A DNA stretch of 56,431 nucleotides from a virus. The position numbers and the translations under genes were made by a program. The first letter of the stretch is position 1. Every line of letters begins with the position of its first letter. The notes under the pieces are model-generated. The model saw nothing but the letters and a program-made list of their open reading frames with translations, was not told where the DNA came from and searched no databases. The stretch is from positions 1-56,431 of IMG/VR virus record IMGVR_UViG_3300045988_170861, one strand, 5' to 3'. This document shows, piece after piece, positions 15,869 to 52,933 of the stretch.

Positions 15869-16477
15869 TTAATGTAAATATTTCAACATTTGTACAAGAT
15901 ATTTACCTTTAAAATCAACTTCTTCATCAGCATCTAATGGTCTTTTATCAAATGCCACAAATCCATTTCTACTGTAAAATTCCTTTAATTTCTCATTATC
16001 TTCACATTCAAGATAAACTATTTTTCCACCAACAACAGCCTGTACTTTTTCTACTTCTTTACAAGCAAGTTCTAATAATTCATCACCTGTAATCAATGAG
16101 GGAAATCTTGTATTTTTCCCTAATTGAGCTATTAATGGAGCGGTTATAACATATATTTTAAAGTTTGGTTCATAAGTGCCAAATTTAGCAATCCTTTTTC
16201 GCATTGTATTACTAATAGCTTTTGACCTTGATTTTACTGAAAAATTTTTATTAGCAATAGTAAAATAGCCAGCAATTTCATATTTATTTTTATATGAAGC
16301 AAGAACTAATTGTGTTTTTGATAATCCTTTTTTAGAAAATTCTATTGCCTTACAATGCAAAAAATTGTCAACATCTGAATTTAAATTATTTTCAAATGTT
16401 GACAATATATTTTTTGTTTCATCTTCGGTTTTCTTTTTTAAAACATCATCTAATTTTACTAATAAATAACCTTCCAT
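15869..16477 (-). CDS. GNAT-family acetyltransferase, candidate TacT/AtaT-like toxin
   Basis: F.C....F......L..SY.......AGYFT segment and C-terminal GNAT motif B ECEDNEKLKEFYSRNGF; downstream of small partner gene. Confidence 0.5.
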   Translation of the reverse strand: MEGYLLVKLDDVLKKKTEDETKNILSTFENNLNSDVDNFLHCKAIEFSKKGLSKTQLVLASYKNKYEIAGYFTIANKNFSVKSRSKAISNTMRKRIAKFGTYEPNFKIYVITAPLIAQLGKNTRFPSLITGDELLELACKEVEKVQAVVGGKIVYLECEDNEKLKEFYSRNGFVAFDKRPLDADEEVDFKGKYLVQMLKYLH

Positions 16478-16493
16478 TCAACAACCCCTATTA

Positions 16494-16658
16494 TTAAAAA
16501 ATTCTATCAATGTCATCTTCTGTTGCAGTTCTATAACTCCTAGAAAATACAACTTCTTTTCTTGTTTTTCCTTTTGCATTTTCTAGTGCATTAATTAATG
16601 AACGACAACTTTTTTTATCTTTAATAACAATATTTTTTAAAATGCTCTTTGTTGCCAT
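16494..16658 (-). CDS. small protein (54 aa), candidate RHH/DUF1778-like antitoxin (ORF track extends to 16739 but that start lies inside the promoter)
   Basis: RBS GGGGGA 7 nt before ATG at 16658; precedes GNAT gene. Confidence 0.4.
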   Translation of the reverse strand: MATKSILKNIVIKDKKSCRSLINALENAKGKTRKEVVFSRSYRTATEDDIDRIF

Positions 16659-16663
16659 AATAA

Positions 16664-16779
16664 AGTCCCCCAAAAATACCACGCAAAAACCGTGCAAAAA
16701 ACATGCAAAATAACCTTTATATTTAAAGTATAATATCAAAAATATGTATTAGTCAATGAATTTTTACATTTTTATGTAA
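16664..16779 (-). promoter_or_regulatory. promoter TTGACT(16751..16756)-17-TATTAT for TA cassette, leader with three ~11-bp direct repeats (16664..16708) and palindrome TTACAT-N4-ATGTAA (16764..16779)
   Basis: Read from sequence on minus strand. Confidence 0.45.
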
Positions 16780-25800: not shown

Positions 25801-28800
25801 AAATTTATATTTATTGAATTTAGCATCGTGTACTCTAAATTGACCAAATGGAACATTACCAATAGCTAAATCAAAGAAGTTATCAGGAGAACTAAGTTTT
25901 TCAAATCCAGTGATATTAATATTAGCTTTTTGATAAAGTTGTGTAGCAATCTGACCACTTATTTTATCCAATTCTACGCCTGTTAAATATGAATTTCCCA
26001 TTATTTTTTCAGGCATAAGACCAAAGAAATTACCTACTCCCATTGATGGTTCAAGTATTTTACCGCCTTTAAATCCTAATCTATCAACAATTTTCCAAAT
26101 AGATTTTACTACATTAGGTGCTGTGTAATATGCAGAAAGCATAGACTCTTTAGCTGCTCTATATTCATCATCGGTTAATAATTCTTTTAATTCATTATTT
26201 GTTTTTTCATCAGAAAATACCGATGTCATTCCGCCCCAGCCACTATATTTTGCTAATGTTTTTTGTTCTGCAGACGTTGCTTTTCTACTTTCTATTTCTA
26301 ATTGTTTTAAAAGTTTTATTGCTTTTATATTATTTTTATATCGTTTTTCTTTACCACCTTCACCGACATTATCTTTATCTGACATTCTATAGTTAATAAG
26401 TGCAGGCTCATTACTTATTTCTTTTACCGTTTCTGTTGTTAAAGGTTCTATCTTTCGTTCATCATTTCCCAAGCCAGCATTTCCGCTTCCATTCTGCGTC
26501 TGGTCAACTCCAGATAATCGTCCGTTGGTGTCTGGTCGTTCATCAACATTTGTGTCAAGTCCTCGTGTTGATTGTCCCTCTCCTCGATTATTTTCTGTAC
26601 TTGTTGACGAAGATTTCCTTTCTTCTTCATTGCTTCCAGTTCCTTCGGATTGTTTACTTCCATTTGTAATATTTCCTCGTCTATTCTGTTCTTCATCGAG
26701 AACGCCATTATCTTTCACCTCATCAGTTTTATTTATTAAATTATTGTCTTTAGCATAATTATATATATTATCTATAACACGAACAATTGAATCAATAGTT
26801 CTACTTTCAACTGCTGAATATCTACCAACGCGAGGATTATTTTCCCATATATCACGGCGATTATCTTGTTCTTCTTTTGTTGTAGCTTTATTTATCCACT
26901 GTTCAACAGCTTCTGCTTCTTTTTCTTTTGCTATTTTATTTAAAGCTGAATACTTGTTACCAGCATATTTTAATGAGTTATCTATTTCATCTAATGTTAC
27001 ATCAAATTTTCTGTTAGAACCAAATAACAGTCTTTGACTTAATTCAGGAGAATCTACACTATCAAAATCTTTTTCTGTATAATTACTTTTTTTAGCATCT
27101 TTTGAAGTTAATGTTATTACATTTCCTCTTAAAAAACCATTATACATACCGATTTTATCATTAAATTTATAGATAATAGGATTTTTTTTGTTGCTTTTTT
27201 GTTCTTTAGTTTTTTCTTCTTTTTCTACATTTTCTTCTTGCGGTTTATTTTCTTCTTTAGTTTTTTCTTCTGTTACGTTAGTTTCCTTTACATCAACCTC
27301 TTTTTCTTTTGTAACTTTATCATTGCTTTGTTTTTCTTTATCTTTTGCTACTGCTTCTTCAATTGCTTGTTTTCTTGCTATTGCTGATTCAGCTAATATG
27401 TCATCAATTCCTAATCCTTTACCTTCTGGAGTAAATACTTTTTCCATCAAGTCTTTATATTTTTTTCTTATCTTAATTAACTTATTTTTAAGTTCTTCTT
27501 TTATATCATGGTCGTTTATAGCTTCTAAATCTTTAAATAATTGTTTTGTATATTCATCACCTTTTTTTACTTCTTCCACTGTAGGGTCTTTGAAGTTTTC
27601 TGGTATTTTTTCTATCTGTTCAGTAGAAGCTTCTTTTTCGCTTGATTTTTTTTGCTCTTTAACTTCTTCTTTATTATTTTTATTTAGTTTGTCTTTTAAG
27701 AAGTTGAAATAATCATGTTCTCCTTTAGTTATTTTTTCTTTTTTATCATCTTTAACTAAATAATAATTACTTCCATCTTTTTGAACATTATAACTGTCAT
27801 CGCTTATAGATTTTTCTATTCTTTCTTGACGAGAAATTTCACTATTAGGAAGTATTTTCTTTAATGTATTTGTAGCTTGTGATTTTTTTAATGATGTATC
27901 TAATGTATTGATATATTGATTAAAATATGGCTCTAAATCAATATTTTGATTTTGTTCAACGTTATTAGAAGGTTCTTCATTTACTATTTGTTCTCGTTGT
28001 TTTGGTGTCTTATATGAACCATAAACTTGCGGTGGTAATGTGAAATTTTTTGCAAACTCAACACCGCTTTTAATTAATTTATTTCTTCTAGCTTCTATTC
28101 TTGTTTGATTAGCGAGCTGAATTGGATTAAGAATTTTATTTTGTAGAATGTTGTTAGCTGTTGATGTTGATTCAACTTTTTGTACATTGTCATTAACAAC
28201 ATTATTTTGCTGTTGTTGTACTTGTTGATTATTAGCTATTTCATTAGCATAATTTTTCATCAAATATTGTTTTGCTTTTTGCTCATCTAAGAATTGATTA
28301 TCTTCATTATTATTTTTAAATAATGATTGTAATTTAGCTATTTCTTCTGGATTTCTACTTGTTTTAACTCGTTGTCTTGCAAACTCACGTAACCTATCAA
28401 GGTTAGGAGTTTCCATTTGAATTTTATTATTATTTGTAGATTTATTTTCGTTTGATGATGGTTTAACTGTATTAGTTGTTTTAATTGATTTAGTTAATGG
28501 TTCATTATTTTGTTTTTGTCTACTATTAACATAATCATAAATATTATCTTCTATACCTGGATAACGTTGTATTAATGCTCTTAAATTATCATCAGTAGCT
28601 TTAAATAGTTTATTTCCTCTTCCATCTATTATTGTTTTATCCTTAAAAAATTCTGTCGTTTCACCATCAGCATTATTAAGCATATCATTAGCAAAATCTA
28701 AAATAGAATTATCAAATTGTACGCTTGCTTCTGCTATATTTGTTTTACCTTTTGTTCCTAATCCACCTTTATATCCTTCTAAATGTAAATGATATCCACT

Positions 28801-30723
28801 GCCTACGTCATGAAATAATACATCTTCGAAAGCTCCTGTGTCCTCAAAACGTTTCCTTACAGCTTGTGCTTGTTCGTCTGTAATTCCGTTTGGTAAAACA
28901 ATATCTACTGCATCACCTTTTGTATGATATGAACCTTCAACGCCTCCAACTTCTCTATTATGTTCAGGTGTTCTATATGCTGATGAAATTGCTGAACCTT
29001 CTGCCATACCCATATCATCAAGAATACCACCAATATATGGTAATGCACTTTTAAATGCAGGAGTAAGTCCTTCTATTTGATTTTCTATTCCTGGTTGAAC
29101 AGATAAATTATACGTATGCATATTATATCTTGATAGTCCATCATCTTGTATTTCACCAGCAATACTTTCAATATTCGCTCCATACTCATTCGGGTCAGAA
29201 GAAAAATATCCATTATCATATAATACACGTGCAAAATCTTGTCCATTTTTTACATTGGATAAATCATAATGGCTTAATGTTTGTTTTGCATACTCATGAG
29301 CAAAATCTTCTATTGAATCAAAACTTTGTAACTCATTTGCTGTAGTATCCGTTCTTTTTAAGCCAGCAAAATTATTAGTTCTGTTAGCATTTCCAGCAGT
29401 AAATCTTCCACTTTCTAATGCCCATTGTGAATAAATATATTTTGTTAAATCTGGTCGTCCTATATCATCAGCAGCGATTTTTGCAGCTTCCCATGCTTTT
29501 TCATTTTCTACGCCTTTTGGTACACCTTGGTCTGTTACATATCTTGTATAAGAAGCAGCTCCGCTCATTGGTGCTCCTGTAAGTGCTCCTATAAGTAGAG
29601 AGTCAAGCTGGTCTTGACTAGCGTTCCAAGGCAACAATCCCCAATCTTTATCTGTTTGTGCATTTGAAATACCTTGCTGTACATACTCTTCTAAACCTTG
29701 TTGAGCCGATGTAGCTAATGTAGAAGGAACAGAACGATATGTCCCTTTAATTAATCTTTTAGGAATGCTTTCTCCTTCTACCGCAAGAGGCTTAAATATC
29801 TTTCCGCCAAGTAATCCATATTCAAGACCATTCGATATTGCCAATGATGGCAAATTCAATCCAGCAGTTTTCCAACCGCGTAAAAACGGATTGTCTAATC
29901 CTTCTTCTTTTGCTTGTCTTACTACATTACCACCTTCAGATAAACTTTCAGGTACAGATGTTATAGAACCTCTTATCATTGTTTCTAAAGCATCGTCGCT
30001 TAATCCACGTAAAAAAGGTAATTTTTTTAATGTCTGTGCTGCTGATGTTACTTTTGTAGCTGGTGCTAAGAATGAAGATGGATATAATGCAGCCATTGAG
30101 CCGACCATATTACCAACATCATAAGTCAAGCCAGATGGATTAGTTAAGTAATCTAGCGATAAAATATTATCTGCTCCACTATACTCTCTATCTCTTTTAT
30201 TTAATTTAGAAATAGCATTTAATTCATTTCCTGTTTTTTCTGCTCCGAATATATCAGCAATCCCACCAGCTACAGAACTTGCTCCACTAACAGCACCTTT
30301 ACCAAAATTATAATTATATTCAGCAGCAGTTGGTGCATATGTTTGTTGCATTGCGTGTTCAACTTCATTTGCACCAGCCAATCCACTAAATAATAAACTG
30401 ATAGGCGACTGATTAATTCCTAAATGTTTCAATTCTCCAAACGGCATTGCTCGTTCTAAACCTGCTACAGTATCTTTAAGTTTTTGTGGAATATATTCAT
30501 TATAAGTATCAGATATATTGTTTGCTACCCAATCATAATTATTAGAAATTCCATTTGCTACATATTCAGCATTATTAGAAATACCGCTGGCTATATCACC
30601 AGCGGTATCAAATATTTTATCTAATGTAGACTCATTTTCTTCTTGTCGTCTTTTTTCTTCTTCTGCGTTATATGTTCCAACAGGGCCTGTTGCTTTTATA
30701 AAGTTCTGTAAAAATTTAGACAT
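16840..30723 (-). CDS. giant polyvalent virion/ejection protein (4627 aa): glucosaminidase + M15 peptidase + N6A-MTase + SNF2 helicase + HExxH zincin + hydrophobic C-terminus
   Basis: Motifs YSQWALESGRF...NNFAGLK; SAYRTPEHNRE...H.H; ILEPSMGVGNFFG and NVPFG; AHSVGAGKT, FVDEAD, TGTPISN, QREGRILRQG; FWHETFHW. Confidence 0.85.
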   Translation of the reverse strand: MSKFLQNFIKATGPVGTYNAEEEKRRQEENESTLDKIFDTAGDIASGISNNAEYVANGISNNYDWVANNISDTYNEYIPQKLKDTVAGLERAMPFGELKHLGINQSPISLLFSGLAGANEVEHAMQQTYAPTAAEYNYNFGKGAVSGASSVAGGIADIFGAEKTGNELNAISKLNKRDREYSGADNILSLDYLTNPSGLTYDVGNMVGSMAALYPSSFLAPATKVTSAAQTLKKLPFLRGLSDDALETMIRGSITSVPESLSEGGNVVRQAKEEGLDNPFLRGWKTAGLNLPSLAISNGLEYGLLGGKIFKPLAVEGESIPKRLIKGTYRSVPSTLATSAQQGLEEYVQQGISNAQTDKDWGLLPWNASQDQLDSLLIGALTGAPMSGAASYTRYVTDQGVPKGVENEKAWEAAKIAADDIGRPDLTKYIYSQWALESGRFTAGNANRTNNFAGLKRTDTTANELQSFDSIEDFAHEYAKQTLSHYDLSNVKNGQDFARVLYDNGYFSSDPNEYGANIESIAGEIQDDGLSRYNMHTYNLSVQPGIENQIEGLTPAFKSALPYIGGILDDMGMAEGSAISSAYRTPEHNREVGGVEGSYHTKGDAVDIVLPNGITDEQAQAVRKRFEDTGAFEDVLFHDVGSGYHLHLEGYKGGLGTKGKTNIAEASVQFDNSILDFANDMLNNADGETTEFFKDKTIIDGRGNKLFKATDDNLRALIQRYPGIEDNIYDYVNSRQKQNNEPLTKSIKTTNTVKPSSNENKSTNNNKIQMETPNLDRLREFARQRVKTSRNPEEIAKLQSLFKNNNEDNQFLDEQKAKQYLMKNYANEIANNQQVQQQQNNVVNDNVQKVESTSTANNILQNKILNPIQLANQTRIEARRNKLIKSGVEFAKNFTLPPQVYGSYKTPKQREQIVNEEPSNNVEQNQNIDLEPYFNQYINTLDTSLKKSQATNTLKKILPNSEISRQERIEKSISDDSYNVQKDGSNYYLVKDDKKEKITKGEHDYFNFLKDKLNKNNKEEVKEQKKSSEKEASTEQIEKIPENFKDPTVEEVKKGDEYTKQLFKDLEAINDHDIKEELKNKLIKIRKKYKDLMEKVFTPEGKGLGIDDILAESAIARKQAIEEAVAKDKEKQSNDKVTKEKEVDVKETNVTEEKTKEENKPQEENVEKEEKTKEQKSNKKNPIIYKFNDKIGMYNGFLRGNVITLTSKDAKKSNYTEKDFDSVDSPELSQRLLFGSNRKFDVTLDEIDNSLKYAGNKYSALNKIAKEKEAEAVEQWINKATTKEEQDNRRDIWENNPRVGRYSAVESRTIDSIVRVIDNIYNYAKDNNLINKTDEVKDNGVLDEEQNRRGNITNGSKQSEGTGSNEEERKSSSTSTENNRGEGQSTRGLDTNVDERPDTNGRLSGVDQTQNGSGNAGLGNDERKIEPLTTETVKEISNEPALINYRMSDKDNVGEGGKEKRYKNNIKAIKLLKQLEIESRKATSAEQKTLAKYSGWGGMTSVFSDEKTNNELKELLTDDEYRAAKESMLSAYYTAPNVVKSIWKIVDRLGFKGGKILEPSMGVGNFFGLMPEKIMGNSYLTGVELDKISGQIATQLYQKANINITGFEKLSSPDNFFDLAIGNVPFGQFRVHDAKFNKYKFDIHNYFFAKALDKVRPGGLIVFITTKGTMDNSHDSKRLRIYLKDKADLIGAIRLPDTAFKNNTGTNVISDIIILKKRIDPLKADINAKDWIETDLIDVDERMFQMNQYYIKNPEMVAGKITSISGRYGNDALNVSGKDIDLPKKLSKITKKIAEDVYEPLLNPVKDSKQATMEYLAPNKLRDNSYTIGKSGKVYQNINGKLEEVPKAKQKLVKDFVNVKNKLKQLLSAQVDNKISDTAISKIRTELNTLYDTFVENNGYLNNKNNSRYLATDPEYGMVSAIERYSEDKKTKKVTVGKSDIFNMRTVGLVKKPTKADSPSDALAISLREQGKVDIDYMANLVGKEPKEIVENLKGVIYKNPMTGLYETQDEYLSGNVREKLAQAEEVAKTDSSYKENIEALKKVQPVDLVPEEITVNLGASWIPASDIKQFAAETVGVNSDYIDVIYLPANGEWAVKADTWVKNNVSFTETWGISNRWSFDKLLEAALNQKRPVIKKTISENKSVVDDDATTAANNMIDNIKKAFNDWIWSDEKRTKRLLDYYNTNFNNWKLREYDGSHLILPGYSLIAPPLRKHQKDAVWRIMQNSNTLLAHSVGAGKTWTMQTAAMEMRRLGICKKPLFVIPGHMIQQFANEFRQIYPNVQLLIVSSENLPEVTKKDKDSSRKSEKIAQRQRILTQIATEDWDGIIISHDMFKRIPMSPEAYNEFYREQENSLEQAIREINSQGDKSLLDSMVTRNLEKSIINLKTKLKRDIAEEKKDMVIPFEELGIDQIFVDEADLFKNLSFTTKMQRVAGLSNTGSQRSMDMYLKTKYITKTNGGRGVVFATGTPISNTLAEMYTMMRYLDEDNLRKNNLLYFDNWANQFVDITQTVERNPDGNGYRAVNKASAFVNKPEMVKMFRKFADVKRPEDLHLKVPKMKTGKRIVVSVEASSALKDFITNDVKNRAEMIRQRKVDPTEDNMLKLTGELRKASLDVRLINPEVPVSQAGTKISSLVDNVYKEYKDSNSTKGAQLIFCDLSTPAGVSDKNNDNVDVDTDNENDISNGKFNVYHEIKRQLIEKGIKENEIAFIHDAKTRAKKQELFDNVNNGKVRVLIGSTEKMGAGTNCQKKLVALHHLDCPWRPRDIEQREGRILRQGNENKEVGIYTYVTKDSFDANMWEKIKNKQHFISEALSADITQRIIEDNDVLAMSFAEAESLASGNPLMAEKVLIDAEVGKYTSLKNSFDKKQSRIKRELEKLPGKIENATKASEKATLDVKQHKDISGKNFSIKIGNRLFTDRKKAQLALDKITEPILKEQNKNNTKIGEIAGFDLKARFVPTSTTLYGHTTKTSGEVILTLVNNWSYEAKNSIRSIEATVNNMPQKIVETNNDIIKQSVERQKELTKEMNKKFADEDKLNELLAKQADINSKLNIGVDNNVDNNYDEDMTDNVVESEDDNVVKEENAPKKDDADFLNEHIIVGSLTKEGIKTTKSTKEKSSPEQSINVDDFDFSNEKPVKYVDTIHINKDTKEKIDNIKDIYNYYFGYDSNLQTTTGNMRKIVLRMRNRLLMIPEVSNSSAQNLKQNVKKYIEPIIKSLAKDDVDNKGKYNGFINIFKNDKLAAKKNTSPYEINPDKTIDEFADIITSMIEKKKEIEAKKGNSSDSSSGSIENVDDDKFTLDTHTDTRNGELKYRVKVKEQMNFQQLKSLAKQSGGGYSRFAKGFLFSSSEDRQKFVNAVRGITDKEQSSNYSFAEDMYKKLDEYVDIREKADFDNVKIGDYEKEISAIGDRMGTPIYWFTGPKGFRGWHSHGTTYLNVNGNWSHPKVFWHETFHWIARNNPSLFNDMLNDMKKRVTPKQIEDYRKTVWRGDKLSEDKIIEEMMADGFYDVVKRVKYLRNLGKENKSLAKRLISFIRDLMNRFTDFLNNPKAGLTNTQKKSMFKNFMKLSSSIVDNQGNKLFERGKNGEIKINDNRDFYSIGKEEEESLIRQYGEDYMSVLFDDDEYNSQFSADNDKSVDSATGIFKGAFKNIKNRFTKNKKDERIKIYSKSAHDKKVDELGNIGGFESILSSPERLAEKYVAFKPVFNYADNAMRKQLKNRHYYNKKLNEAFDYLENKDKDIEELNDLMFKGDALSEEYGKGITDFEKRADKIVEETGVKKGTAKAYIAIRGLLNECYELINRARTQIQTKSEIISKSKLEGLKQNKFVNILDEVQNEKDKDDVLVTYEIRPSHIRQDVCNKAQLEALRKDEAIQILEEKEGVTEKDGSTHIYGDDYSTPKGEKINLDNNKLYTVKYREAIPKVNKLEGYVPHFFHDFYVVVQNDDGTTTTVDSGRNVKEAYKKAEQYLKDNENAKLIIHPKRFDFNEVGIDEEYYAEMVGDGAYKKINERIANEFDMSIDDVEQLLNKKGDNKNKVRRSSKHRFFGNIQHRTGAKGYEDKDLNWVLRHYFNSACRYEALETEFKPKAISYFERIYGRIGTDNKYLNGTARYIKDYINDVNGNPSALENSISTWLNNRRLWRYLFTSRYGERAALSVAGNITNKISILKLGVWNVSSAMLNLTQLLNTTALLTDKNPIKAASEVMKAAKDIAALKESQTEKRIAKLKPDERKAMEDTGVLHELGLDSGAGYSKTSFGKWGDRSMILFKASERLARCATILAAYRKARNVLNKNHDDAVKYARDINRKANFDYGVNDAPNVFRRGSIISQVLFQFMKYPIKQFELMRDFIPFNGKKDATWQQKATFWGGWIFFAGAFGLPAEDLLWALVGLISEPVFGVSPKQAVRQFLLEASKDASLPERVAIRTLLYGGLSNVGIDISSRVGMNDIIPGLGEDYNKDANPVIKAMEKFGGATGGTIAQFYLNATKGDNLGMLRSISPGMYNIYTAAIGESKDGRGRITTKYDDAMSRIIRGMGFKSTNEAIDTELGSLKYYNMNKTSKEKQNAIDDYLDAEERKENLAPYAKKLKELGVKRSTVVKARKDRKKDRRERLKEKDTPEYYQGAEALSW

Positions 30724-30741
30724 AATATAATCTCCTTATTT

Positions 30742-32775
30742 TTAATATCCAGGAATTAATTCTTTTTTATATTTATCTGGTATTCCACTGAAATATTTTT
30801 CAGCCATATCGGTATATCCAGCTTCAAGTTCTCTCCGTCCTTCAAGTGCTAATATCATTGAATTGGCATACGTGCTATCTTCTTCGTCCATTTCTGGTAA
30901 GTATTTTGCTACCTCATTTTTAAAGTTATCAATGTCTTCAGCATCTAATGATTGTTTAGCTTTCGCATATCCTTCTGCTAACGGTCTTGACCAATCTGGT
31001 ACTTTATCAGATGACGAGTTATTATCACTATTAGGCATTTTACCAGTTAAAACATAAAGTAAGCCCTGTCCTTGGTCCCATACCCCAGCACTTACTAATT
31101 GTTGAGCAGCATCTTGACGGGCATTAGCTTTATTTTGTTCACTTTGATTTCTTATACTCATTTCCAATCTTGTTACATAATCTTTTACTTTAAGTTGTAA
31201 TCCCGTATTAAAAGCATTTACATCTTTTTGAGCTGCTGTTTCTCTAGCAAGCATATCAACAGATTGTTTATATTTTCTATCTATATTCGCTTGTGTAAAT
31301 TGTTGTGCTAAATTTGCCTTATCTATATCGCGTGCAAATCCCCATTGTTCTTTTGGTGAAGCAAATTGACTAGCATATAATTGAGCCATTTCAGGATTGT
31401 TTGCTAATGTTGCTTGTGATAATAAAGCAATACCCATACTATTTAAAGAACCATCTGGATTAACTCCTGTTGTATTCATGACATTTTGAAGATTATTCAT
31501 ATATTTTGCTTCATACTGCATAGCCATATCAGAAGCAAATTGACGTGCATAATCTTCTGGTATTCTTTTCTTTATAGCTTCTTGATATGCTCGTTGATAA
31601 AAATTATTAGGATTTACAGTAATATCAGGCTGTTTTAATAGTTCTTGTGGCGTTAAATTATTTATTTGTTCAGTTTCTTCCTGTTGTTTTTTAGCATTTT
31701 GTTGAGCTTGTTCACCTTGTATCATTCGTGCTAAATTTTCTAAGCTTACATCAGAGCCTGCTTCTGGAATTGATATTCCATTTTCGGCTGCTAATTGTCT
31801 AATAGCTTCTGCTCTCATATTCGCATTTTGCATATCTTGCGTATTATTATTTTGTTGAGCATTTGCATAGTCTTGTTTAGATTGTAAAACACCATTTAAT
31901 AATTGCATTTTTATATCATCATAAGTAGGATTATCAAAGTTTTTAACTTTATTTAAGCGGTTTTGTACTTCTTCAACTGTATTTTCTCCCCCTGCTACAT
32001 CTAATTTTATGCCGTATAAATAAGCAAGTTGTCTTGCTCCATTTGCCTGTTGTTGTGCTTGTTGCATTCCTTGGGTATCTCCATTTTGTTGTGCACTAGC
32101 ATATTTATTTTTAGCGTCAATTATTTGTTGATATAGCATTTGTTCAATAGATTGTCCATTATAAGAATTAGCCTCACCACCAGTTTTTAGTGATGAGGCC
32201 TGATAAAAAGAAGGTATACCAAATACATTTGAAATTGCATTGTTAACTACATTTTGACCTAAGTCAGACATTATATTATTACCACTTAACGAGCCATTAT
32301 CTTTTTGTGCTTCTTGCATTACCGCTTGATTGGTTAAGTTATTATTATTTTCATTTATTTGAGCTTGTGTTTGTGGCTGTTCTTGTTGTTGCCCTAATCT
32401 GCTTAAATCCATATTTTGATTGTTTGCTTGTGCAGCACTGTATATATCATATCCACTAATTGGAGTATTCAATAATTCTTCTTTTGTTTGTGGTACAAAT
32501 AATTCACCATTGGGCGAATATGCCTTAATTGCTGTATCAGTTAAACTATTACCTGTTGTATTTAAATTATCTGTAGCTAATGATTGATTATTATTTCCAG
32601 TTCCTGACATTTTATCTTGTAAATAATTTTGTATTTGTGGTTTTAAAAAATACTTTGAAATTAATGAGCCTGCTAAATATGCTGGATCTGCATTTTGCAT
32701 ACTCATCATCGATGCTATTTGATTTAATCTTTGTTGATACCAGTCTTGACCAGTTGAATTGTAATTTCCAGCCAT
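30742..32775 (-). CDS. Q/N-rich protein with internal tandem repeat, putative internal virion/ejection protein
   Basis: 677 aa, repeats KYASAQQNGDTQGMQQA... / QDYANAQQNNNTQDMQNA... Confidence 0.5.
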   Translation of the reverse strand: MAGNYNSTGQDWYQQRLNQIASMMSMQNADPAYLAGSLISKYFLKPQIQNYLQDKMSGTGNNNQSLATDNLNTTGNSLTDTAIKAYSPNGELFVPQTKEELLNTPISGYDIYSAAQANNQNMDLSRLGQQQEQPQTQAQINENNNNLTNQAVMQEAQKDNGSLSGNNIMSDLGQNVVNNAISNVFGIPSFYQASSLKTGGEANSYNGQSIEQMLYQQIIDAKNKYASAQQNGDTQGMQQAQQQANGARQLAYLYGIKLDVAGGENTVEEVQNRLNKVKNFDNPTYDDIKMQLLNGVLQSKQDYANAQQNNNTQDMQNANMRAEAIRQLAAENGISIPEAGSDVSLENLARMIQGEQAQQNAKKQQEETEQINNLTPQELLKQPDITVNPNNFYQRAYQEAIKKRIPEDYARQFASDMAMQYEAKYMNNLQNVMNTTGVNPDGSLNSMGIALLSQATLANNPEMAQLYASQFASPKEQWGFARDIDKANLAQQFTQANIDRKYKQSVDMLARETAAQKDVNAFNTGLQLKVKDYVTRLEMSIRNQSEQNKANARQDAAQQLVSAGVWDQGQGLLYVLTGKMPNSDNNSSSDKVPDWSRPLAEGYAKAKQSLDAEDIDNFKNEVAKYLPEMDEEDSTYANSMILALEGRRELEAGYTDMAEKYFSGIPDKYKKELIPGY

Positions 32776-32792
32776 TATTAAAAACTCCCTTC

Positions 32793-33512
32793 TTAAAATA
32801 ATCCGCCAAACAATCCACCAAGTAATCCGCCACCGCTAGTGGTTTGAGTAGTTGTAGTCGTTCCTTTACCTGCTAATGCATTAAGCGTTGAATTGCCTGA
32901 ACTTGCAAGCCCTGTTGAAGCATTCCACAAATTAAGTGCTGGCTGTTGAGCCGCTTCTTGTGCTCCTGCTGCTGTTGTTATTCCTGCCGATGCATTATTG
33001 ATATTTCCATTATTTATTCCATTTAATAAGTTCATGTAACTTTGTTGTTGTTGTGAAATAGTATTATTCACACTATCAGATAAATCTTTCATTCCTGTAG
33101 TTGTTACAGAACTATTCAATACACCATTATTAGCAAGTCCATTTAATAAATTACCCATACTATTTTGCGCTATGGTTGATACATTATTAGTTATATTGTC
33201 TAGTGCTGCTTGCGGTAATTGTCCATTAGCCAAAGCTTGATTATTTTGGTTTGCTTGATTTATTTGACTTTGTGCTTGATTATTAGCTGTGTTAAAATCA
33301 TATCGAACAGCACCTATTGAATTTTGCAGAATATTTTTAGCAGTATCATTGAGCCAAACTGCATTAGGTGCATATTGATTAGCTAAGTCAGCTTGAACTT
33401 TTTGCAGCTGTAGCTCATATTCTGTTGGTTGATACGATTGGTTGTTTACCGTTGTATTTCCTTTGAATAACTGCAAATCTATATAATAAATTTTAGGTTT
33501 GTATGCATGCAT
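32793..33512 (-). CDS. Q/N-rich protein with Gly-zipper C-terminus GGGLLGGLFGGLF; N-terminal Prp-type motif YIDLQLFKG; putative ejection protein
   Basis: Composition and motifs read from translation. Confidence 0.5.
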   Translation of the reverse strand: MHAYKPKIYYIDLQLFKGNTTVNNQSYQPTEYELQLQKVQADLANQYAPNAVWLNDTAKNILQNSIGAVRYDFNTANNQAQSQINQANQNNQALANGQLPQAALDNITNNVSTIAQNSMGNLLNGLANNGVLNSSVTTTGMKDLSDSVNNTISQQQQSYMNLLNGINNGNINNASAGITTAAGAQEAAQQPALNLWNASTGLASSGNSTLNALAGKGTTTTTQTTSGGGLLGGLFGGLF

Positions 33513-33533
33513 AACCTCACCTACTTTCTATAT

Positions 33534-34013
33534 CTAAATATCCCATGTTACATAATAAGAAATCCTTGTTATATCATCATGCATATGTACAGGTGATACA
33601 CGAGCCTTCTTACCTTCTTTGTTTTCTGCATAATAGATAAAAGAGCCGTCATTGAGCGGCTCTTTTTTAGTTATCTTATATCCCCAAAAACGAATATAAG
33701 CTTTTATATTTTCTCGTATGCATATTGTACCTAGTTTTTTTATCCCTAGCATTTGAGCAAATACTGTGGCAAAATCTCGCCAAAATTTGCCATCACCAGC
33801 CATTTGATAAATCATTAGCATACTATTATCTTGAGTAGTGCTAAATTCACAAAAGCCACGAGAAGGCAAATAAAAAAGCTTAAACCCTTCTTTTGGTTTA
33901 AACTTATCTTTTGTTTTTTGCTCATATTTTTTTATATATTCATCTAATATATTCATAAAATTCTCCATTAAATATAAAAGACAAGCAAATTGCTTGTCCT
34001 TTATATTATACAC
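33534..34013 (-). CDS. hypothetical protein
   Basis: ORF. Confidence 0.45.
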   Translation of the reverse strand: MYNIKDKQFACLLYLMENFMNILDEYIKKYEQKTKDKFKPKEGFKLFYLPSRGFCEFSTTQDNSMLMIYQMAGDGKFWRDFATVFAQMLGIKKLGTICIRENIKAYIRFWGYKITKKEPLNDGSFIYYAENKEGKKARVSPVHMHDDITRISYYVTWDI

Positions 34014-34392
34014 TTACTTTTTTAATTAATGCTTCTTGTAATGTTTTTGAAAAATTAATGTTTAATTCTTCGGCTTTGGCATTTAACCATGCAGGAATAG
34101 TACAATTTTTCTTTACAGTTTTTGTTCCAAATTTTTGACGATATATATCTATATCAACATCTACATATGATACAACGGCATTTTCAGGCAAAGTAAATTT
34201 GTTAGTATTAGGTCTAGCAAATATTTTACCCTCTTCTTTATGGTCTAAAATATATAAACTTATTACATCACGAGCCATTTCAATAGCTTCTACAAAAGTA
34301 TTTCCTTGAGTGTTAATTTCTAAATCAGGAACAGTTACAAAATAGCCACCATTATCTTTTTCAAAAATTACAGGATATGCTAATTTATTCAT
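34006..34392 (-). CDS. hicB: HicB-family antitoxin with C-terminal RHH
   Basis: YPVIFEKDNGGYFVTVPDL...GNTFVEAIEMARDVISLYI (UPF0150/HicB fold) plus RHH tail; RBS AGGGAGG. Confidence 0.8.
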   Translation of the reverse strand: MNKLAYPVIFEKDNGGYFVTVPDLEINTQGNTFVEAIEMARDVISLYILDHKEEGKIFARPNTNKFTLPENAVVSYVDVDIDIYRQKFGTKTVKKNCTIPAWLNAKAEELNINFSKTLQEALIKKVSV

Positions 34393-34425
34393 AAAAACAG
34401 CCTCCCTTTATTATAAAATGAGGAC

Positions 34426-34599
34426 TTATTTAAGTCCCCACTTTTTGATTATTCCTCTAGCTAATCGTTCATTTATATCAGGATGACGAGGAATATATTC
34501 TGTATTTACACCATTAGTATAAATATCATGATTTGCCCCGTTCCTTTTAAAATACCAACCATTAGCTTGAAGAATTTTAAGAAGTTCGCGTCTTTTCAT
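34426..34599 (-). CDS. hicA: HicA mRNA interferase toxin (57 aa; ORF track start 34647 is upstream of RBS AAGGAGGA)
   Basis: MKRRELLKILQANGWYFKRNGANHDIY...IPRHPDINERLARGIIKKWGL matches HicA (YcfA) motif. Confidence 0.8.
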   Translation of the reverse strand: MKRRELLKILQANGWYFKRNGANHDIYTNGVNTEYIPRHPDINERLARGIIKKWGLK

Positions 34600-34649
34600 T
34601 AGCTTCCTCCTTAAAAATATTATACGCCCAAATGCGTATAATATCAAGA

Positions 34650-35090
34650 TTAAAACTTAAATTTATAGCCTACCATTATATTTTTTTCATCAATGGCTAT
34701 CCATTTATTTTCAATATCGGCTGTTACAGCTATACCATTTTTGCTTATTCCTAATCCAATTGCATAATCATTATTGTTATTGTTTTCGTATTGCGTCAAT
34801 AATTGATTGGCATTCGCTAAGGATTGATTCAAAGTTTGAACTTGCGTCTGTAGCTGTTCCGATTGCGTTTTCAAGTTTTTCACTTGTGTCTGCGATATCT
34901 GAAGCTGTGTTTGCAATGTCTTGTTTTGCTCCTTCAGCTCGGTCAAGTTCGTTTCTAATTGCGTCAGTTGGCTTTCCGTTATCGTATAAGTCTTTTCTGT
35001 CGCTCCACAGACTGCACACATACAAGACCACAATAATAATACCGCCAATAATAATATATTTATATTTTTTAATCTTACTAAGCACATCAT
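34650..35090 (-). CDS. membrane-anchored coiled-coil protein (alternative overlapping frame 34777..35094 also encodes TM + helical protein)
   Basis: N-terminal hydrophobic segment, Q/T/L heptad region, non-repetitive C-terminal tail ...MVGYKFKF. Confidence 0.4.
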   Translation of the reverse strand: MMCLVRLKNINILLLAVLLLWSCMCAVCGATEKTYTITESQLTQLETNLTELKEQNKTLQTQLQISQTQVKNLKTQSEQLQTQVQTLNQSLANANQLLTQYENNNNNDYAIGLGISKNGIAVTADIENKWIAIDEKNIMVGYKFKF

Positions 35091-35335
35091 TCAAGTGTGT
35101 TCACTTCCATTTCTTCAATACAAGGATTTAATGCTCTAAGCCCTGTAAAATAAAGTACATCGCCCTGCATAAAGCAAAATTCAGGTACATTATCCAATAA
35201 TACCTGGTTAGGATTTTTAGATGTTTCAAAAATATCTTTAATCTTTGCTTTTGTAATACCTTCAATTGGTTCTTTACTTACAAGTTTAATAGTTTTAATC
35301 ATGATAAACACTCCTTCATTTTGTAACTTCCGCAT
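35087..35335 (-). CDS. hypothetical protein
   Basis: ORF. Confidence 0.45.
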   Translation of the reverse strand: MRKLQNEGVFIMIKTIKLVSKEPIEGITKAKIKDIFETSKNPNQVLLDNVPEFCFMQGDVLYFTGLRALNPCIEEMEVNTLE

Positions 35336-35930
35336 TATTTAATAATTGAATTATCTCATTGATTTTATTTTTTAATACATCTAGCGTGAGCGTATCTCCG
35401 CTTTCTGTAATTTGATTTATTTGAGGTTGTTGTATTATACCTACATGGTTTGTAGTTAAGAGTAAATTTGTTACCTCTTTAGACAAATTACTCAATATAA
35501 TAGTGTTTTCAGCTATCTTTTCCGAAATTATAGCATTATTAACCAGCTTTTCTGTAGTTATTGATAAATCTTTTATCATGCTTGTTTCAATTTTGTCATC
35601 AGCTAATAGCTTATCAACTACTTCTTTTGCAAGCTTAATTAAGGTAACAGCACCATCAACAATTTTTTCTGTACTTACAGAATTATCGTTTGGAATATTT
35701 CCTTCAGCTACTTTTAGCTTAGTTATCTCCCACCATGCTTTTAAATACTGCTCTTTCCGCCAAAAAGGTTTAGAAAATGGCTGATAATCTTTACCAGCCA
35801 TTGCCATTACGATTGAATATAAATATTGTTCTTCTAAATCTGTTGTCGGTTTTGGTAAATTATCTATTATATCCTGGTAATCATTCATAGTAGACACTGC
35901 AATCAAGCCCCATATTTCCAATTCGTTCAC
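35316..35930 (-). CDS. hypothetical protein
   Basis: ORF. Confidence 0.45.
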   Translation of the reverse strand: MNELEIWGLIAVSTMNDYQDIIDNLPKPTTDLEEQYLYSIVMAMAGKDYQPFSKPFWRKEQYLKAWWEITKLKVAEGNIPNDNSVSTEKIVDGAVTLIKLAKEVVDKLLADDKIETSMIKDLSITTEKLVNNAIISEKIAENTIILSNLSKEVTNLLLTTNHVGIIQQPQINQITESGDTLTLDVLKNKINEIIQLLNNAEVTK

Positions 35931-36468
35931 AATCGGTGTATTGCCACATTCGACATATACGATTAGGATTTTCTATAGCAAAGCTATTTTGATGATAATA
36001 TTGAGCTGACCAAATAGGTACATAATCAGGCAATGCTTTTAAGTCTATAATATTTGTGAGCCAATTATAAGAACTATATAAGCCTACATAGTTATACCCT
36101 TTTTCTAACAATGTACTGATAAAATTAGCAATAGGATAAACTACATTTAAATATCCTTCTAACATATCTTTATCTTCAGCATCATACCAAATACCGAGTT
36201 CAGGATTTTTCCCATTAAGATATGTCTTAATCTGTTTATCAACCCAATTAGCTTCTGCTACAGCTTCATTAATAGATGAAGCGTGTCCATAATAATAAAC
36301 GCCATAGCGTAATCCATACGCTACAGCGTTATTTACATGTTCTATAAACTTTTTATCAAGTTTATAATGTTCTCCTATTTTTAGAATAACTCCTTCAATC
36401 CCAGCATCTTTTACTGCTTGCCAATCGATCCATTCTTGCCAAGCCGAAACGTCAATTACTTTCATCAT
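35881..36468 (-). CDS. GH25 muramidase endolysin (catalytic domain only)
   Basis: N-terminal VIDVSAWQEWIDWQAVKDAGIEGVILKIGEH GH25 signature. Confidence 0.8.
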   Translation of the reverse strand: MMKVIDVSAWQEWIDWQAVKDAGIEGVILKIGEHYKLDKKFIEHVNNAVAYGLRYGVYYYGHASSINEAVAEANWVDKQIKTYLNGKNPELGIWYDAEDKDMLEGYLNVVYPIANFISTLLEKGYNYVGLYSSYNWLTNIIDLKALPDYVPIWSAQYYHQNSFAIENPNRICRMWQYTDCERIGNMGLDCSVYYE

Positions 36469-36721
36469 TAATCACCGCCAAATCAATATTTTCAATTTCT
36501 GCACGTTCTTCTAATACTTTTAATTTAGCTCTCATATAGATTAATTGTTCATATAAAAGCTCATAACTGCATTTAGGCTTAAATGGTAATGTTCCTGCTT
36601 TATAAGCTTTTAACATTTTTGCTAAACCTTCTGCTCTTTTTTTATCTTGATGATATTCAGCTTGAAATCTTTCTTTAAAATCAGCACTTAACATTAATTT
36701 AACAGTATCTTTTAATTCCAT
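36452..36721 (-). CDS. hypothetical protein
   Basis: ORF. Confidence 0.45.
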   Translation of the reverse strand: MELKDTVKLMLSADFKERFQAEYHQDKKRAEGLAKMLKAYKAGTLPFKPKCSYELLYEQLIYMRAKLKVLEERAEIENIDLAVINDESN

Positions 36722-36723
36722 AA

Positions 36724-36825
36724 TTATTTATCACTCCCAAAAATATATCCTACTGCAAAACCAAATAAAAAGAATCCACCGCAAATGCAATTAAATATTA
36801 ATTGCTTCATCGCTAATACGTCCAT
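36724..36825 (-). CDS. tiny hydrophobic ORF (33 aa, one TM) not in ORF track
   Basis: ATG with RBS AGGTGATAA; MDVLAMKQLIFNCICGGFFLFGFAVGYIFGSDK. Confidence 0.3.
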   Translation of the reverse strand: MDVLAMKQLIFNCICGGFFLFGFAVGYIFGSDK

Positions 36826-36827
36826 AA

Positions 36828-36944
36828 TTATTTATCACCTTTAAATCCACATTTAGCACATAACCATAAAAAGCCTAAAAAATCTTTCCATGCCTTACAT
36901 GGTTCAGCCTTAATTAATTTTACACTAACATAATTTCTAATCAT
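36828..36944 (-). CDS. tiny Cys-containing ORF (38 aa) not in ORF track
   Basis: ATG after AGAAGGA; stop overlaps RBS of next tiny ORF. Confidence 0.25.
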   Translation of the reverse strand: MIRNYVSVKLIKAEPCKAWKDFLGFLWLCAKCGFKGDK

Positions 36945-36963
36945 TATTAATCCTTCTTTCTTT

Positions 36964-37437
36964 TTATTTTCTAATTTTTTCTTTTTGTATGGCATACTGT
37001 GCTAAGTTATTCTTTAATTTAGTTGGAACTGGTACACCACAGTTTGTAGCATTTTCTAATATACTTAGGCCCTCGTTGGCAATATAAAACAAAATCGCAA
37101 TATCTCGCGTGATAGTTCCTTGATTGAAAACAATATCTGCCGTATGTGCCACCATAATAATAATGACGATGACAGCCTTTTTTGCTAATCCTCGCCAACC
37201 TTTTCTGCTATCAAGTTTTTTGTTTGGATTTATCCAGGCTGATAAAAGACCTGTTATATAATCTAACACCATTAATAATAGAATAGCTTCCCACAAGTTT
37301 GACCAGCTACCAAATAAATGACTACATATCGTCCCCACAGTAGCGAAACACGCTCCCCATTCAATCTCTAATCGGACTGGTATAATCGTCTTGCAAAACG
37401 AAACCATATCCGCCAAAAATTCCTGCATTTTAATCAC
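36964..37437 (-). CDS. phage holin (holin_4_1-like)
   Basis: Multiple TM segments and FYIANEGLSILEN motif. Confidence 0.75.
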   Translation of the reverse strand: MIKMQEFLADMVSFCKTIIPVRLEIEWGACFATVGTICSHLFGSWSNLWEAILLLMVLDYITGLLSAWINPNKKLDSRKGWRGLAKKAVIVIIIMVAHTADIVFNQGTITRDIAILFYIANEGLSILENATNCGVPVPTKLKNNLAQYAIQKEKIRK

Positions 37438-37441
37438 CTTC

Positions 37442-39580
37442 TTAAATTAAAAAATATGATTTACCAAAAATATTTAATAAATCTTCACTCAAGCAATATC
37501 CGAAATTTATACTGCCTTGTAAATCAGGGTGTACATTATCTGTTGTAGAAACTAGATATTTACTACAATCTATAATAATTATATTAATTTCTTCGTATGC
37601 TTCCGTTAAAATCTCTTTATTTTTACCATTAAGTGGAATTAAGCCAACTATAATTCTACCAGGATATTTATTTTTTATTCTATTTACGCAGTTTTTTACA
37701 ATTAGTTTATAACTTTCTAAATCAGTTACATTATCATTTGTGCCTAATTCAATAAGGATAAAATCTACTTTTTCATCAATGTGTTTATTACTACTATTAA
37801 GGCAATCTATATAAGAACCATTAGCATTATAAGCTGTTTCTTCTCCTTCGGTACCTTTTACAGGCAACCAATCCGAATTACTTTTACTTATATATCCAAT
37901 TCCACCTCTACCAATACTTACAAACCCACATTTTAAAAACTTACTCGTTTGACTTAAAAAATTTAAATGATGTGAATTTTTGTTATCTCCGTTAACATTC
38001 CAGCCTTCACTTATGCTATCACCAAAGCATAACCCTATTCTACATTCAGGTTTTACAGCTATAGCTTCACCATCAGCGTCAACGGTAATATCTTTTAAAT
38101 ATACTCCATTATTGCTTGCAAACATTGCTGTGTGCATAGATGTTATAACTACTTCTATATAGTGTTCTATATTTTTATCCAAATCAGAAATTGTAAAAGA
38201 TGTGCTATCTTCTATAACTACATAATCATTATTATCCACTTTATAAGCAAAGCGGAGCATATAATTAGTTGTATCAGAAAAATCAAAAGCTACTGTAGAT
38301 GTATTCTTAACTCTAGTAAAAATTTTAGCTCCAGCTAATGTTGTATACATTCCATTATCTGTTTTTATCCATCTTCCTAAAAAATAGCATTTATTACCAA
38401 TATCGCCAAAATCTCTTGCGTTTTTCCCTTCCGCTAATTTAGGCATATTATTTTTTAAATCTAAAAAATATCTATCATCTATTTTAATATTTTTATCAAT
38501 GTATATTCTTTGGTTTTTATTGTTATCGTTTTCTTTCAATAGATATAAAAAACCATTTTCAAGTGCAGTTATCGCACCACTTGTTCTTATATATAACGTA
38601 TCTTCTGTGGTGGTAAACGTGAATATAGTTCCGCTATGTTCTACAGCTTGTAAAAATTCTTTATTTTTATTATATAAATTTACGTTATACGCAAATATTT
38701 TATATGTTGTATTTGGCTCTACTAATATATAATCGGTTACAAAGTCATCATCACTGCCGTCAATTATACTTCCGTCATTTTTTAAATATTTGTTACTTGT
38801 ATAAGAAGATGATTTTAATAGATTTCCGTATCGGTTTATAAAATCAGTTTTATTATAACCAACAACTTTGTCATTTAAATTAGTGTTGTCAATTTTAACT
38901 AGAATTTCATCATTTAGAGAATGTCCTTTTATATCTTTAAATTTGTCCGAGTCTTTTAGTCCTTCAAATACAAACAAAGAATTGTTTTCGATTGCCTCTA
39001 TACCACCGCTTGTTCTTATATAAGTGGTATCCTCTGTTGTAGTAAACGTAAATACTAAACTTCCATCAGGAGATGTAATTGTTTTTATTTTGTTTTTATT
39101 TCTATTATATAAAACACAATTAAGACTAAAAACTTTGTATATTGTGCTTGGTTTTACTTCTATATAATCCGTAATAAAAGTTGTTTCGTTTTCAACAATG
39201 TTTCCAGTATCATCAAAATTTTTACCCTCAATTATTGAAGTTGTTTTTAGTAAATTACCTACAGCATTAAAAAAAGTCATTAAATTAGGACTCAAACTAT
39301 TTATTTCTATTTGTGTTGCTTGATATACACCACCACTTACCCATGTGCTACCATTCCAATAATTCCAATTTCCATCGTTTAGTGTTAAATAAATTCTAGT
39401 TTTATCCACATCTTCTGCACTTTGTAATGCTGCTAAATTATCACAAACTCCAGCAGGTGAGCCACTAGCGACTTTTTCAAGTTCTACTTTATCTGCTTTT
39501 AAACCAATATCGTTTCTAGCTTGTTTATCAGCAAGCTCATAATCAGTACCGCCAACATTTAAATAAGAAACTGTTTCCAT
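37442..39580 (-). CDS. tailspike/receptor-binding protein with tandem ~150-aa repeat and C-terminal SGNH/GDSL hydrolase domain
   Basis: Duplicated block ...TDYI(E/L)V(K/E)P(S/N)T(I/T)YK(V/I)F...FTFTTTEDT(T/L)YIRTSG...; GDSL motif LCFGDSISEGW. Confidence 0.65.
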   Translation of the reverse strand: METVSYLNVGGTDYELADKQARNDIGLKADKVELEKVASGSPAGVCDNLAALQSAEDVDKTRIYLTLNDGNWNYWNGSTWVSGGVYQATQIEINSLSPNLMTFFNAVGNLLKTTSIIEGKNFDDTGNIVENETTFITDYIEVKPSTIYKVFSLNCVLYNRNKNKIKTITSPDGSLVFTFTTTEDTTYIRTSGGIEAIENNSLFVFEGLKDSDKFKDIKGHSLNDEILVKIDNTNLNDKVVGYNKTDFINRYGNLLKSSSYTSNKYLKNDGSIIDGSDDDFVTDYILVEPNTTYKIFAYNVNLYNKNKEFLQAVEHSGTIFTFTTTEDTLYIRTSGAITALENGFLYLLKENDNNKNQRIYIDKNIKIDDRYFLDLKNNMPKLAEGKNARDFGDIGNKCYFLGRWIKTDNGMYTTLAGAKIFTRVKNTSTVAFDFSDTTNYMLRFAYKVDNNDYVVIEDSTSFTISDLDKNIEHYIEVVITSMHTAMFASNNGVYLKDITVDADGEAIAVKPECRIGLCFGDSISEGWNVNGDNKNSHHLNFLSQTSKFLKCGFVSIGRGGIGYISKSNSDWLPVKGTEGEETAYNANGSYIDCLNSSNKHIDEKVDFILIELGTNDNVTDLESYKLIVKNCVNRIKNKYPGRIIVGLIPLNGKNKEILTEAYEEINIIIIDCSKYLVSTTDNVHPDLQGSINFGYCLSEDLLNIFGKSYFLI

Positions 39581-52709: not shown

Positions 52710-52933
52710 GTTACCATTTTGTTACCATTTTACTTACAACCACTCAAAAAAATTAATATCGTTTAAAAAAATAATATTATAAAATACTCGTTTTTTAACA
52801 TATTTTACCATACAAAAAATATAAAAAGCCATTCATGAGTTTATCGGTAAATCCTGCTTTTTCTAAAACATCTTTATTTATAAGCATTTAAAGCATATAT
52901 AAAATAAATTTGTTACCATTTTGTTACCGATTT
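52710..52933. repeat. attP-like region: tandem GTTACCATTTT x2 at 52710..52731 and again at 52912..52933 (direct), flanking ~180-bp AT-rich segment abutting integrase stop
   Basis: Direct repeats read from sequence. Confidence 0.6.

Follow-up and report, generated by a model that had tools for sequence, protein, structure and literature searches.

A 693-bp hicAB toxin-antitoxin cassette, probably an autonomous moron, in part of a Megamonas prophage population

How does a phage-borne HicAB toxin-antitoxin (TA) pair compare with the systems already described? The pair considered here, hicA and hicB, lies at positions 34006-34599 of IMG/VR record IMGVR_UViG_3300045988_170861, a stretch of 56,431 nucleotides (nt) that was analysed whole and is called the window below. 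Its best matches among solved structures are the HicB-family chain of 9svk and HicAB of Streptococcus pneumoniae (5yrz), with E-values of 2.8e-13 and 1e-9 for HicB and a weak 0.025 for HicA. These systems resemble the window pair in their toxin-first operon, in a small HicA with a catalytic histidine and in a HicB composed of an N-terminal domain and a ribbon-helix-helix (RHH) tail. The window pair is only distantly related to that of S. pneumoniae, belongs to a diderm Firmicute host (Negativicutes) and is prophage-borne. HicAB of Escherichia coli K-12 (6hpb) has a 58-aa HicA with the same G-x-x-H and PRHP motifs, which aligns with the window protein from end to end; its operon, unlike that of the window, has two promoters and is under CRP control (PMC11594946).

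The HicA^T^B systems of IncI2 mcr-1 plasmids share their layout with the window pair: hicA comes first, both ribosome-binding sites (RBSs) are of the GGAGG type, a hairpin with a short U tract precedes the hicB RBS, and a terminator, canonical in the plasmids, follows hicB (PMC11878559). With the internal terminator of HicA^T^B, hicA mRNA stands approximately 10-fold above hicB mRNA, and competition between plasmids depends on this terminator (Lin et al. 2025, PMC11878559). The corresponding hairpin of the window has a stem that is less G+C-rich and covers the stop codon; its termination is only predicted, and its carrier is a prophage rather than a plasmid. A complete hicAB inside a prophage of ~55 kb has been described in Pseudomonas putida prophage P1 (PMC12894663). 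That pair, HicAB2, is toxic and neutralisable by experiment; for the Megamonas pair these properties are predicted. TA pairs of this kind also occur as accessory genes of temperate phages in Paracoccus phage vB_PbeS_Pben1, in Burkholderia pseudomallei and in Mycobacteriophage Adephagia (gp90/91) (PMC11594946). The window differs from these prophage-borne pairs in that the phage is another one and that the insertion junctions and the empty site are both visible.

Set among these systems, the locus is an ordinary example of the well-documented prophage HicAB, and both of its proteins already bear RefSeq names from Megamonas funiformis (WP_282927999.1, HicA family toxin; WP_282927998.1, HicB family protein). 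What goes beyond a first-pass annotation of the pair is the autonomy of the cassette, with its promoter and palindrome, internal hairpin and terminator, together with a mapped empty site and evidence of recent spread. We consider it quite likely, as one joint proposition, that hicAB is a type II cassette both functional and autonomous, that part of a Megamonas prophage population has acquired it as a moron, and that its carrier is a temperate podovirus-like prophage of M. funiformis/hypermegale.

The pair that a first-pass annotation had called complete is so, with coordinates that proved exact and both proteins above the Pfam thresholds. The intact open reading frame (ORF) of hicA (34426-34599, minus strand) encodes a 57-aa toxin, MKRRELLKILQANGWYFKRNGANHDIYTNGVNTEYIPRHPDINERLARGIIKKWGLK, predicted to be a ribosome-independent mRNA interferase. 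It matches Pfam HicA_toxin (PF07927) over residues 4-56 of 57 (E = 6.7e-10; 39.4 bits against a cut-off of 27) and PHROG family phrog_353, 'toxin' (1.3e-16), and like its E. coli counterpart (6hpb_A) the S. pneumoniae HicA (5yrz_B) aligns with it end to end. In an alignment of 52 HicA sequences, comprising that of the window, 49 from related loci and two of solved structure, His24 is invariant throughout, while G14, W15, P37 and H39 are nearly invariant. The 6hpb_A alignment pairs His24 with the GSNH histidine of E. coli HicA, a residue that is His23 in review numbering and one of the histidines important for RNase activity (PMC11594946). Judged by these alignments, HicA keeps its predicted catalytic residue, His24, and the small single-domain size of the 50-100 aa class. 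The identical HicA protein is found on 243 contigs and the identical HicB on 234, chromosome-sized contigs being among them, and a HicA of 91% identity is named for M. hypermegale. PHROGs places both families in the category 'moron, auxiliary metabolic gene and host takeover'; NCBIfam has no match for HicA or HicB.

The ORF of hicB (34006-34392, minus strand) is likewise intact and encodes a 128-aa antitoxin, in which family resemblance points to an N-terminal HicA-neutralising domain followed by an RHH-type tail at approximately residues 93-126. HicB matches Pfam HicB_lk_antitox (PF15919; E = 4.3e-9, 37 bits against a cut-off of 27) and phrog_497, 'HicB-like' (1.5e-32). Both 9svk_B and S. pneumoniae HicB (5yrz_A) align over the whole protein, their C-terminal regions with residues ~93-126, and the C-terminal DNA-binding domain of S. 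pneumoniae HicB is an RHH (PMC11594946). Residues 96-126 also match Pfam CcdA, an RHH family, below threshold (21.4 versus 22.4 bits). The RHH tail that had been claimed for HicB is thus corroborated by alignment, and we assign the protein a predicted C-terminal RHH-type DNA-binding tail. Homology to the N-domains of solved HicB proteins supports a partial RNase H-like fold for the N-terminus; a single-sequence AlphaFold model had a mean predicted local distance difference test (pLDDT) score of 38 and was unusable. HicB homologues of 37-44% identity are present in 146 deposited phage records. Among species-representative genomes, the closest HicB (73% identical) is that of Candidatus Megamonas gallistercoris (L071, 3308-3691), where no hicA lies upstream; that hicB directly follows a 622-aa ORF whose N-terminus resembles window ORF 10623-11564 and stands beside tryptophan-synthesis-like genes. 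The proposal that HicB acts alone as an anti-defence antitoxin mimic was rejected for the window, where an intact, conserved HicA is present alongside.

What would drive expression of the pair? hicA lies directly upstream of hicB on the same strand with a gap of 33 nt, and each gene has a GGAGG-type RBS 6-8 nt before its ATG (GGAGG at 34606-34610 for hicA, GGGAGG at 34401-34406 for hicB), in agreement with the strong sites first noticed. A predicted hicA promoter (34619-34647, minus strand) consists of a -35 box TTGATA (34647-34642), a 17-nt spacer and a -10 box TATAAT (34624-34619), and begins 2 nt past the stop codon of the preceding late gene, p146. At 11/12 positions it is the best sigma-70 match within 30000-38000 of the window. 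The region holds as many sigma-70 matches as its shuffles do, and a lone match in A+T-rich DNA means little. The 75 nt upstream of hicA were compared at 50 non-redundant homologous loci, whose HicA proteins are 29-74% identical to that of the window. TTGACA and TATAAT stand at an equal distance from the hicA start in nearly all 50, and ATRCGY-type repeats fill the promoter spacer just as regularly. In the window, a perfect 11-nt inverted repeat, ATATTATACGC-N6-GCGTATAATAT (34617-34644, strand-neutral), runs across the spacer and the -10 box. In Yersinia pestis and B. pseudomallei, RHH HicB proteins exert repression at palindromes that overlap with the -10 box (PMC11594946), and we infer that the 34617-34644 palindrome is a putative operator bound by HicB.

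To which genome does this control region belong? The closest relatives of the cassette (HicA 72-74% and HicB 54-65% identical) are in Phascolarctobacterium and Fusicatenibacter genomes and do not share the phage flanks. At both Phascolarctobacterium loci examined, hicAB lies among housekeeping genes, such as that for aspartyl-tRNA synthetase, outside any prophage. Because the promoter and the repeat accompany hicAB in these unrelated, chromosomal non-phage contexts, they belong to hicAB and not to the phage. Further copies of the palindrome were sought as a pointer to HicB regulating phage genes: the window has no exact copy beyond the hicA promoter, and matches with three mismatches occur at chance level. 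Could the module nevertheless be a decayed remnant, with intact ORFs and an inactive toxin? TA decay does happen in this genome, in which a phd-yoeB pair has lost its toxin start codon. For hicAB such decay is very improbable: all invariant HicA residues are present, both RBSs, the promoter and the operator-like palindrome are intact, and the protein sequence is identical on >230 contigs.

Two predicted RNA hairpins complete the cassette. The first (34415-34444, minus strand) is a 13-bp stem that includes the final codons of hicA and its stop; UUUU comes next, and the hicB RBS lies shortly beyond (-15.6 kcal/mol, z = -5.8). A hairpin occupies the same place in 11 distinct homologues despite differing arm sequences and is kept through compensatory changes. 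Because the loops vary in length, MAFFT misaligned the 3' arms of the hicA-hicB spacer, and pairs were therefore counted with the Gly codon of the C-terminal G-L motif, which is conserved, as the anchor. Both G-C pairs of this codon are almost invariant among the hairpin homologues, while its wobble base pairs A-U, G-C, C-G, U-G or U-A depending on the locus; the preceding codon is also compensatory. Homologues with a very short hicA-hicB gap have no such hairpin. We regard the stop-codon hairpin as a candidate internal attenuator or terminator. The second hairpin (33971-34007, minus strand) resembles an intrinsic terminator, with a 17-bp stem and an A/U-tract extension directly after the hicB stop codon; its predicted energy of -19.5 kcal/mol (z = -6.35) was equalled by 0 of 200 shuffles. 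A tRNA scan, Rfam at gathering thresholds and a permissive Rfam scan of the hicAB locus yielded nothing meaningful.

Comparison with close relatives delimits the present/absent cassette to 693 bp (33957-34649, minus strand), which hold the promoter/operator, hicA, the stop-codon hairpin, hicB, the terminator-like hairpin and an RBS that now serves the downstream gene p140. An IMG/VR scan with the downstream protein p239 retrieved 11 close relatives, with flanking proteins ~90-99% identical, that have neither hicA nor hicB; in these (L021-L031), p140 comes 56-130 bp after p146. On the left, homology extends through the p146 stop codon (TAA, 34650-34652), and at the position of the -35 box the hicAB-less relatives carry a short spacer with a hairpin of its own, GCCAUUUUUCCCACGUGGGAAAAAUGG (-19.9 kcal/mol). 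This empty-site hairpin is terminator-like (L021, 5420-5560; L022, 5495-5560), and in one group ~75 extra nt lie inside its loop. On the right the junction is sharp, homology resuming at the p140 start codon. The left junction is gradual, identity to the hicAB-less relatives falling from 100% at ~34950 to ~65% at 34650, and the 3' ~300 bp of p146 form a divergent allele linked to hicAB. From this gradient we conclude that the cassette arrived by recombination together with the divergent 3' end of p146. Public gene calls would place hicAB in a 178-nt 'intergenic' region; this placement was rejected, as the p146 frame stays open until 2 nt short of the -35 box and varies in the manner of a coding sequence. 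With its own promoter and terminator-like hairpin, and with near-identical prophages that carry or lack it, the cassette is a moron, the label it had been given at the outset. The existence of near-identical phages without hicAB means that it is dispensable for lytic growth.

The first-pass annotation had further proposed that hicAB is co-transcribed with the late genes. HicA made by read-through of the late operon would act late in infection, in host mRNA shut-off, competitor exclusion or anti-defence. hicAB and the late genes are indeed on the same strand, the p146 stop codon lies 2 nt from the -35 box, and read-through transcripts would, owing to the internal hairpin, yield HicA in preference to HicB. 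Read-through into hicAB is possible, because no terminator separates the p146 stop codon from hicA. Dependence on late transcription does not follow from it, since the cassette has its own promoter, palindrome and terminator. hicAB keeps its promoter and repeat at chromosomal loci outside phages too, near-identical hicAB-less phages are at least as common, uncontrolled HicA would cut the phage's own late mRNAs too, and late co-transcription is not needed to explain hicAB expression. We hold a late-infection role through read-through to be decidedly improbable.

How common is the cassette? The small gene at 35087-35302, upstream of p146, encodes a protein found in identical form in 1005 collection blocks, while HicA and HicB are each found in 460-480 blocks. 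At 10 of the 10 places shown for this gene, which come from its longest contigs with near-duplicate neighbourhoods collapsed, hicAB is absent. Roughly half of this prophage population thus carries the cassette, an estimate that is good only to the order of magnitude, the units being blocks and not contigs. Across 11 hicAB-bearing sequences, none of the 643 nt between the start of hicA and the RBS of p140 varies and two promoter sites do, as against a mean pairwise difference of ~2% in p146, p140 and p239. These figures fit a recent spread of the cassette, and its presence in about half of the population, together with the absence of variation in the copies compared, marks hicAB as a recently spread moron.

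Would such spread require any benefit to the carrier? As a selfish passenger, hicAB would move by recombination between co-infecting phages, benefit neither phage nor host and be hard to lose. The lack of nucleotide variation, which fits recent spread, the ~half of the population without the cassette and the scattering of its closest relatives over unrelated chromosomal sites all favour this possibility. A cost, at least, seems unlikely in view of the cassette's high frequency (243 contigs with identical HicA, from many human cohorts), and a passenger of this sort is hard to separate from addiction. We think it unlikely and place it third among the possible roles.

Several observations weigh against the reading of hicAB as a functional, autonomous, recently spread moron. 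There is no terminator between the late gene p146 and hicA. The terminator-like hairpins are predictions. The zero diversity of the cassette reflects in part how the loci were chosen: exact identity of the HicB or HicA protein was the criterion, and any non-synonymous variant was thereby left out, although synonymous changes could still have appeared. Finally, P. putida P1 HicAB2, the only prophage HicAB tested for these roles, is toxic and neutralisable and yet has no effect on prophage stability or phage resistance (PMC12894663).

If the autonomous moron works as its family does, the following sequence of events may be envisaged. In the lysogen, host RNA polymerase would transcribe hicAB from the cassette's own promoter. 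HicB would di- or tetramerise through its RHH tail, bind the palindrome and repress the promoter, while its N-terminal domain would cover the HicA active site. The intercistronic hairpin would lower hicB relative to hicA. HicA set free from HicB would cleave mRNA and stop growth.

Why would a prophage keep such a device? Addiction-type retention combined with competition is our tentative first choice. Cells that lose the hicAB-bearing prophage, or exchange it for a hicAB-less variant at the same attachment site, would be arrested. This role is ranked slightly ahead of abortive infection, with the selfish passenger behind both, because the operon layout matches the competition design of PMC11878559 and because two homo-immune phage forms coexist. 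A more specific version, which we consider improbable, is that the stop-codon hairpin, maintained by compensatory changes at many Firmicute hicAB loci, may be a working internal terminator that keeps the module toxin-rich, with hicAB serving as a phage-versus-phage weapon that blocks displacement. If this were true, the homo-immune variant that lacks hicAB, equally common and using the same attachment site, would be unable to displace a hicAB-bearing prophage, and the recent, variation-free spread of the cassette through Megamonas phages would be explained.

In abortive infection, a superinfecting phage would trigger the prophage HicAB, and HicA would arrest the cell before the phage cycle is completed. 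Defence of this kind is known from several type II TA systems, and defence genes are frequent among prophage morons. HicA domains are enriched in defence islands, a role having been proposed from genomic context (PMC10865869). Against this, no family in the PADLOC-DB 2.0 defence models matches HicA or HicB at E <= 0.01, and the PADLOC coiled-coil matches of a neighbouring ORF are compositional noise. A 2024 review states that there is no experimental proof for any HicAB acting against phage, and HicAB-like gp90/91 of Adephagia had no target among the phages tested (PMC11594946). The prophage HicAB2 of P. putida gave no protection (PMC12894663). Abortive infection accordingly ranks second and is somewhat unlikely, and the abortive-infection or anti-defence role first suggested for hicAB is left unsupported.

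The window as a whole is the genome of a temperate phage with ~30% G+C, in which divergent XRE-type regulators span the window ends and an integrase is encoded at 52932-54143. The chromosomal genes flanking the integrated prophage, dapF and rqc2, are likewise named for M. funiformis in exact-sequence look-ups. In three loci (L151, L152, L154; 8342-8611) the integrase directly adjoins the host rqc2/NFACT gene, and it follows that the prophage is integrated beside that gene there. Another locus (L156) has the same phd-yoeB-integrase arm but a different adjoining host gene, and hence either the attachment site or the integrase allele is not the same throughout. No deposited phage matched 30000-40000 of the window by megablast. 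A close isolated relative is lacking: the portal protein shares no more than 27% identity with its counterpart in any phage isolate.

Early genes occupy the plus strand to ~15.8 kb and are followed by a long minus-strand late block. The latter runs from terminase, portal, capsid, SU10-type adaptor and tail fibres through holin (36964-37437, minus strand), GH25 endolysin (35881-36468, minus strand) and three small ORFs to hicA and hicB, and on to p140, p239, p677 and a 4627-aa ORF (16840-30723, minus strand) that takes up a quarter of the genome. This order, with hicAB between the lysis genes and the giant-protein cluster on the late strand, supports the placement originally given. In relatives, the 4627-aa ORF has SLT (or glucosaminidase), ResIII/helicase C and LPD38 'polyvalent protein' domains, and some of them have it split into two genes. 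Between holin and a crAss001_48/'Sequestin'-domain gene (36452-36721) lies a second variable spot (36469-36963, minus strand), which among relatives (L001-L020) holds Phage_gp49_66, DUF6275, a 188-aa ORF or nothing. Among the early genes, one at 5153-6175 (plus strand) has a GGGSGSGG motif and adjoins YqaJ exonuclease and RecT genes, and the gene at the same position in relatives matches Pfam Tubulin; in this temperate phage of 56 kb, the 5153-6175 gene may therefore encode a member of the tubulin family (TubZ/PhuZ-like).

Of the two immediate neighbours of the cassette, p140 (33534-33956, minus strand) has its real start, MNILDEY, at 33956 and no match in Pfam, PHROG or NCBIfam. The upstream gene p146 (34650-35090, minus strand) encodes an N-terminal membrane/signal segment and a coiled coil, with a weak PHROG match to an Rz-like spanin (6e-5). 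It is overlapped in another frame by p105 (34777-35094, minus strand), which encodes a transmembrane segment and a coiled coil. Both frames are open in 24 distinct relatives, and public gene calls choose p105; outside the overlap, however, variation falls preferentially at the third codon positions of the p146 frame. Bacteria of the Negativicutes, Megamonas among them, have an outer membrane, and a spanin-like p146/p105 pair would be plausible in such a host.

Three TA modules had been counted in this genome. One, hicAB, is complete. A second is real but damaged: a Phd/YefM antitoxin gene (54325-54573, plus strand; Pfam, 6.1e-9) is followed in frame by an 88-aa YoeB/ParE-like toxin ORF (54574-54840, plus strand). 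In relatives, yoeB begins with TTG directly after the phd stop codon and has YoeB_toxin/ParE_toxin Pfam matches. The window has TTA instead of TTG, which leaves the toxin without an ATG, GTG or TTG start, and it is probably silenced in this copy. At another Megamonas site (L153, L155), an identical Phd with an 88-aa YoeB-like gene beside it is surrounded by housekeeping genes and has a different integrase-like gene nearby. The third module, at 15869-16739, is without TA family support. This pair follows the giant gene, where the late strand ends, and comprises a 202-aa protein (15869-16477, minus strand; PHROG 'acetyltransferase', 7.7e-47) preceded by a 55-aa partner (16494-16661, minus strand; phrog_3291, a small family of unknown function). 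Neither Pfam nor NCBIfam has a family that matches it, no solved structure does so significantly, and it is at best a candidate GNAT-type toxin-antitoxin pair.

What does the hicAB cassette mean for the biology of these phages? Two near-identical forms of a very common human-gut Megamonas prophage, one with and one without the 693-bp TA cassette, amount to a clean natural experiment. With two natural forms and mapped junctions, the purpose of a prophage HicAB, be it retention, competition, defence or nothing, is directly testable. The conserved stop-codon hairpin, for its part, suggests that the internal-terminator design, described for plasmid hicAB in 2025, extends beyond the plasmids of Enterobacteria.

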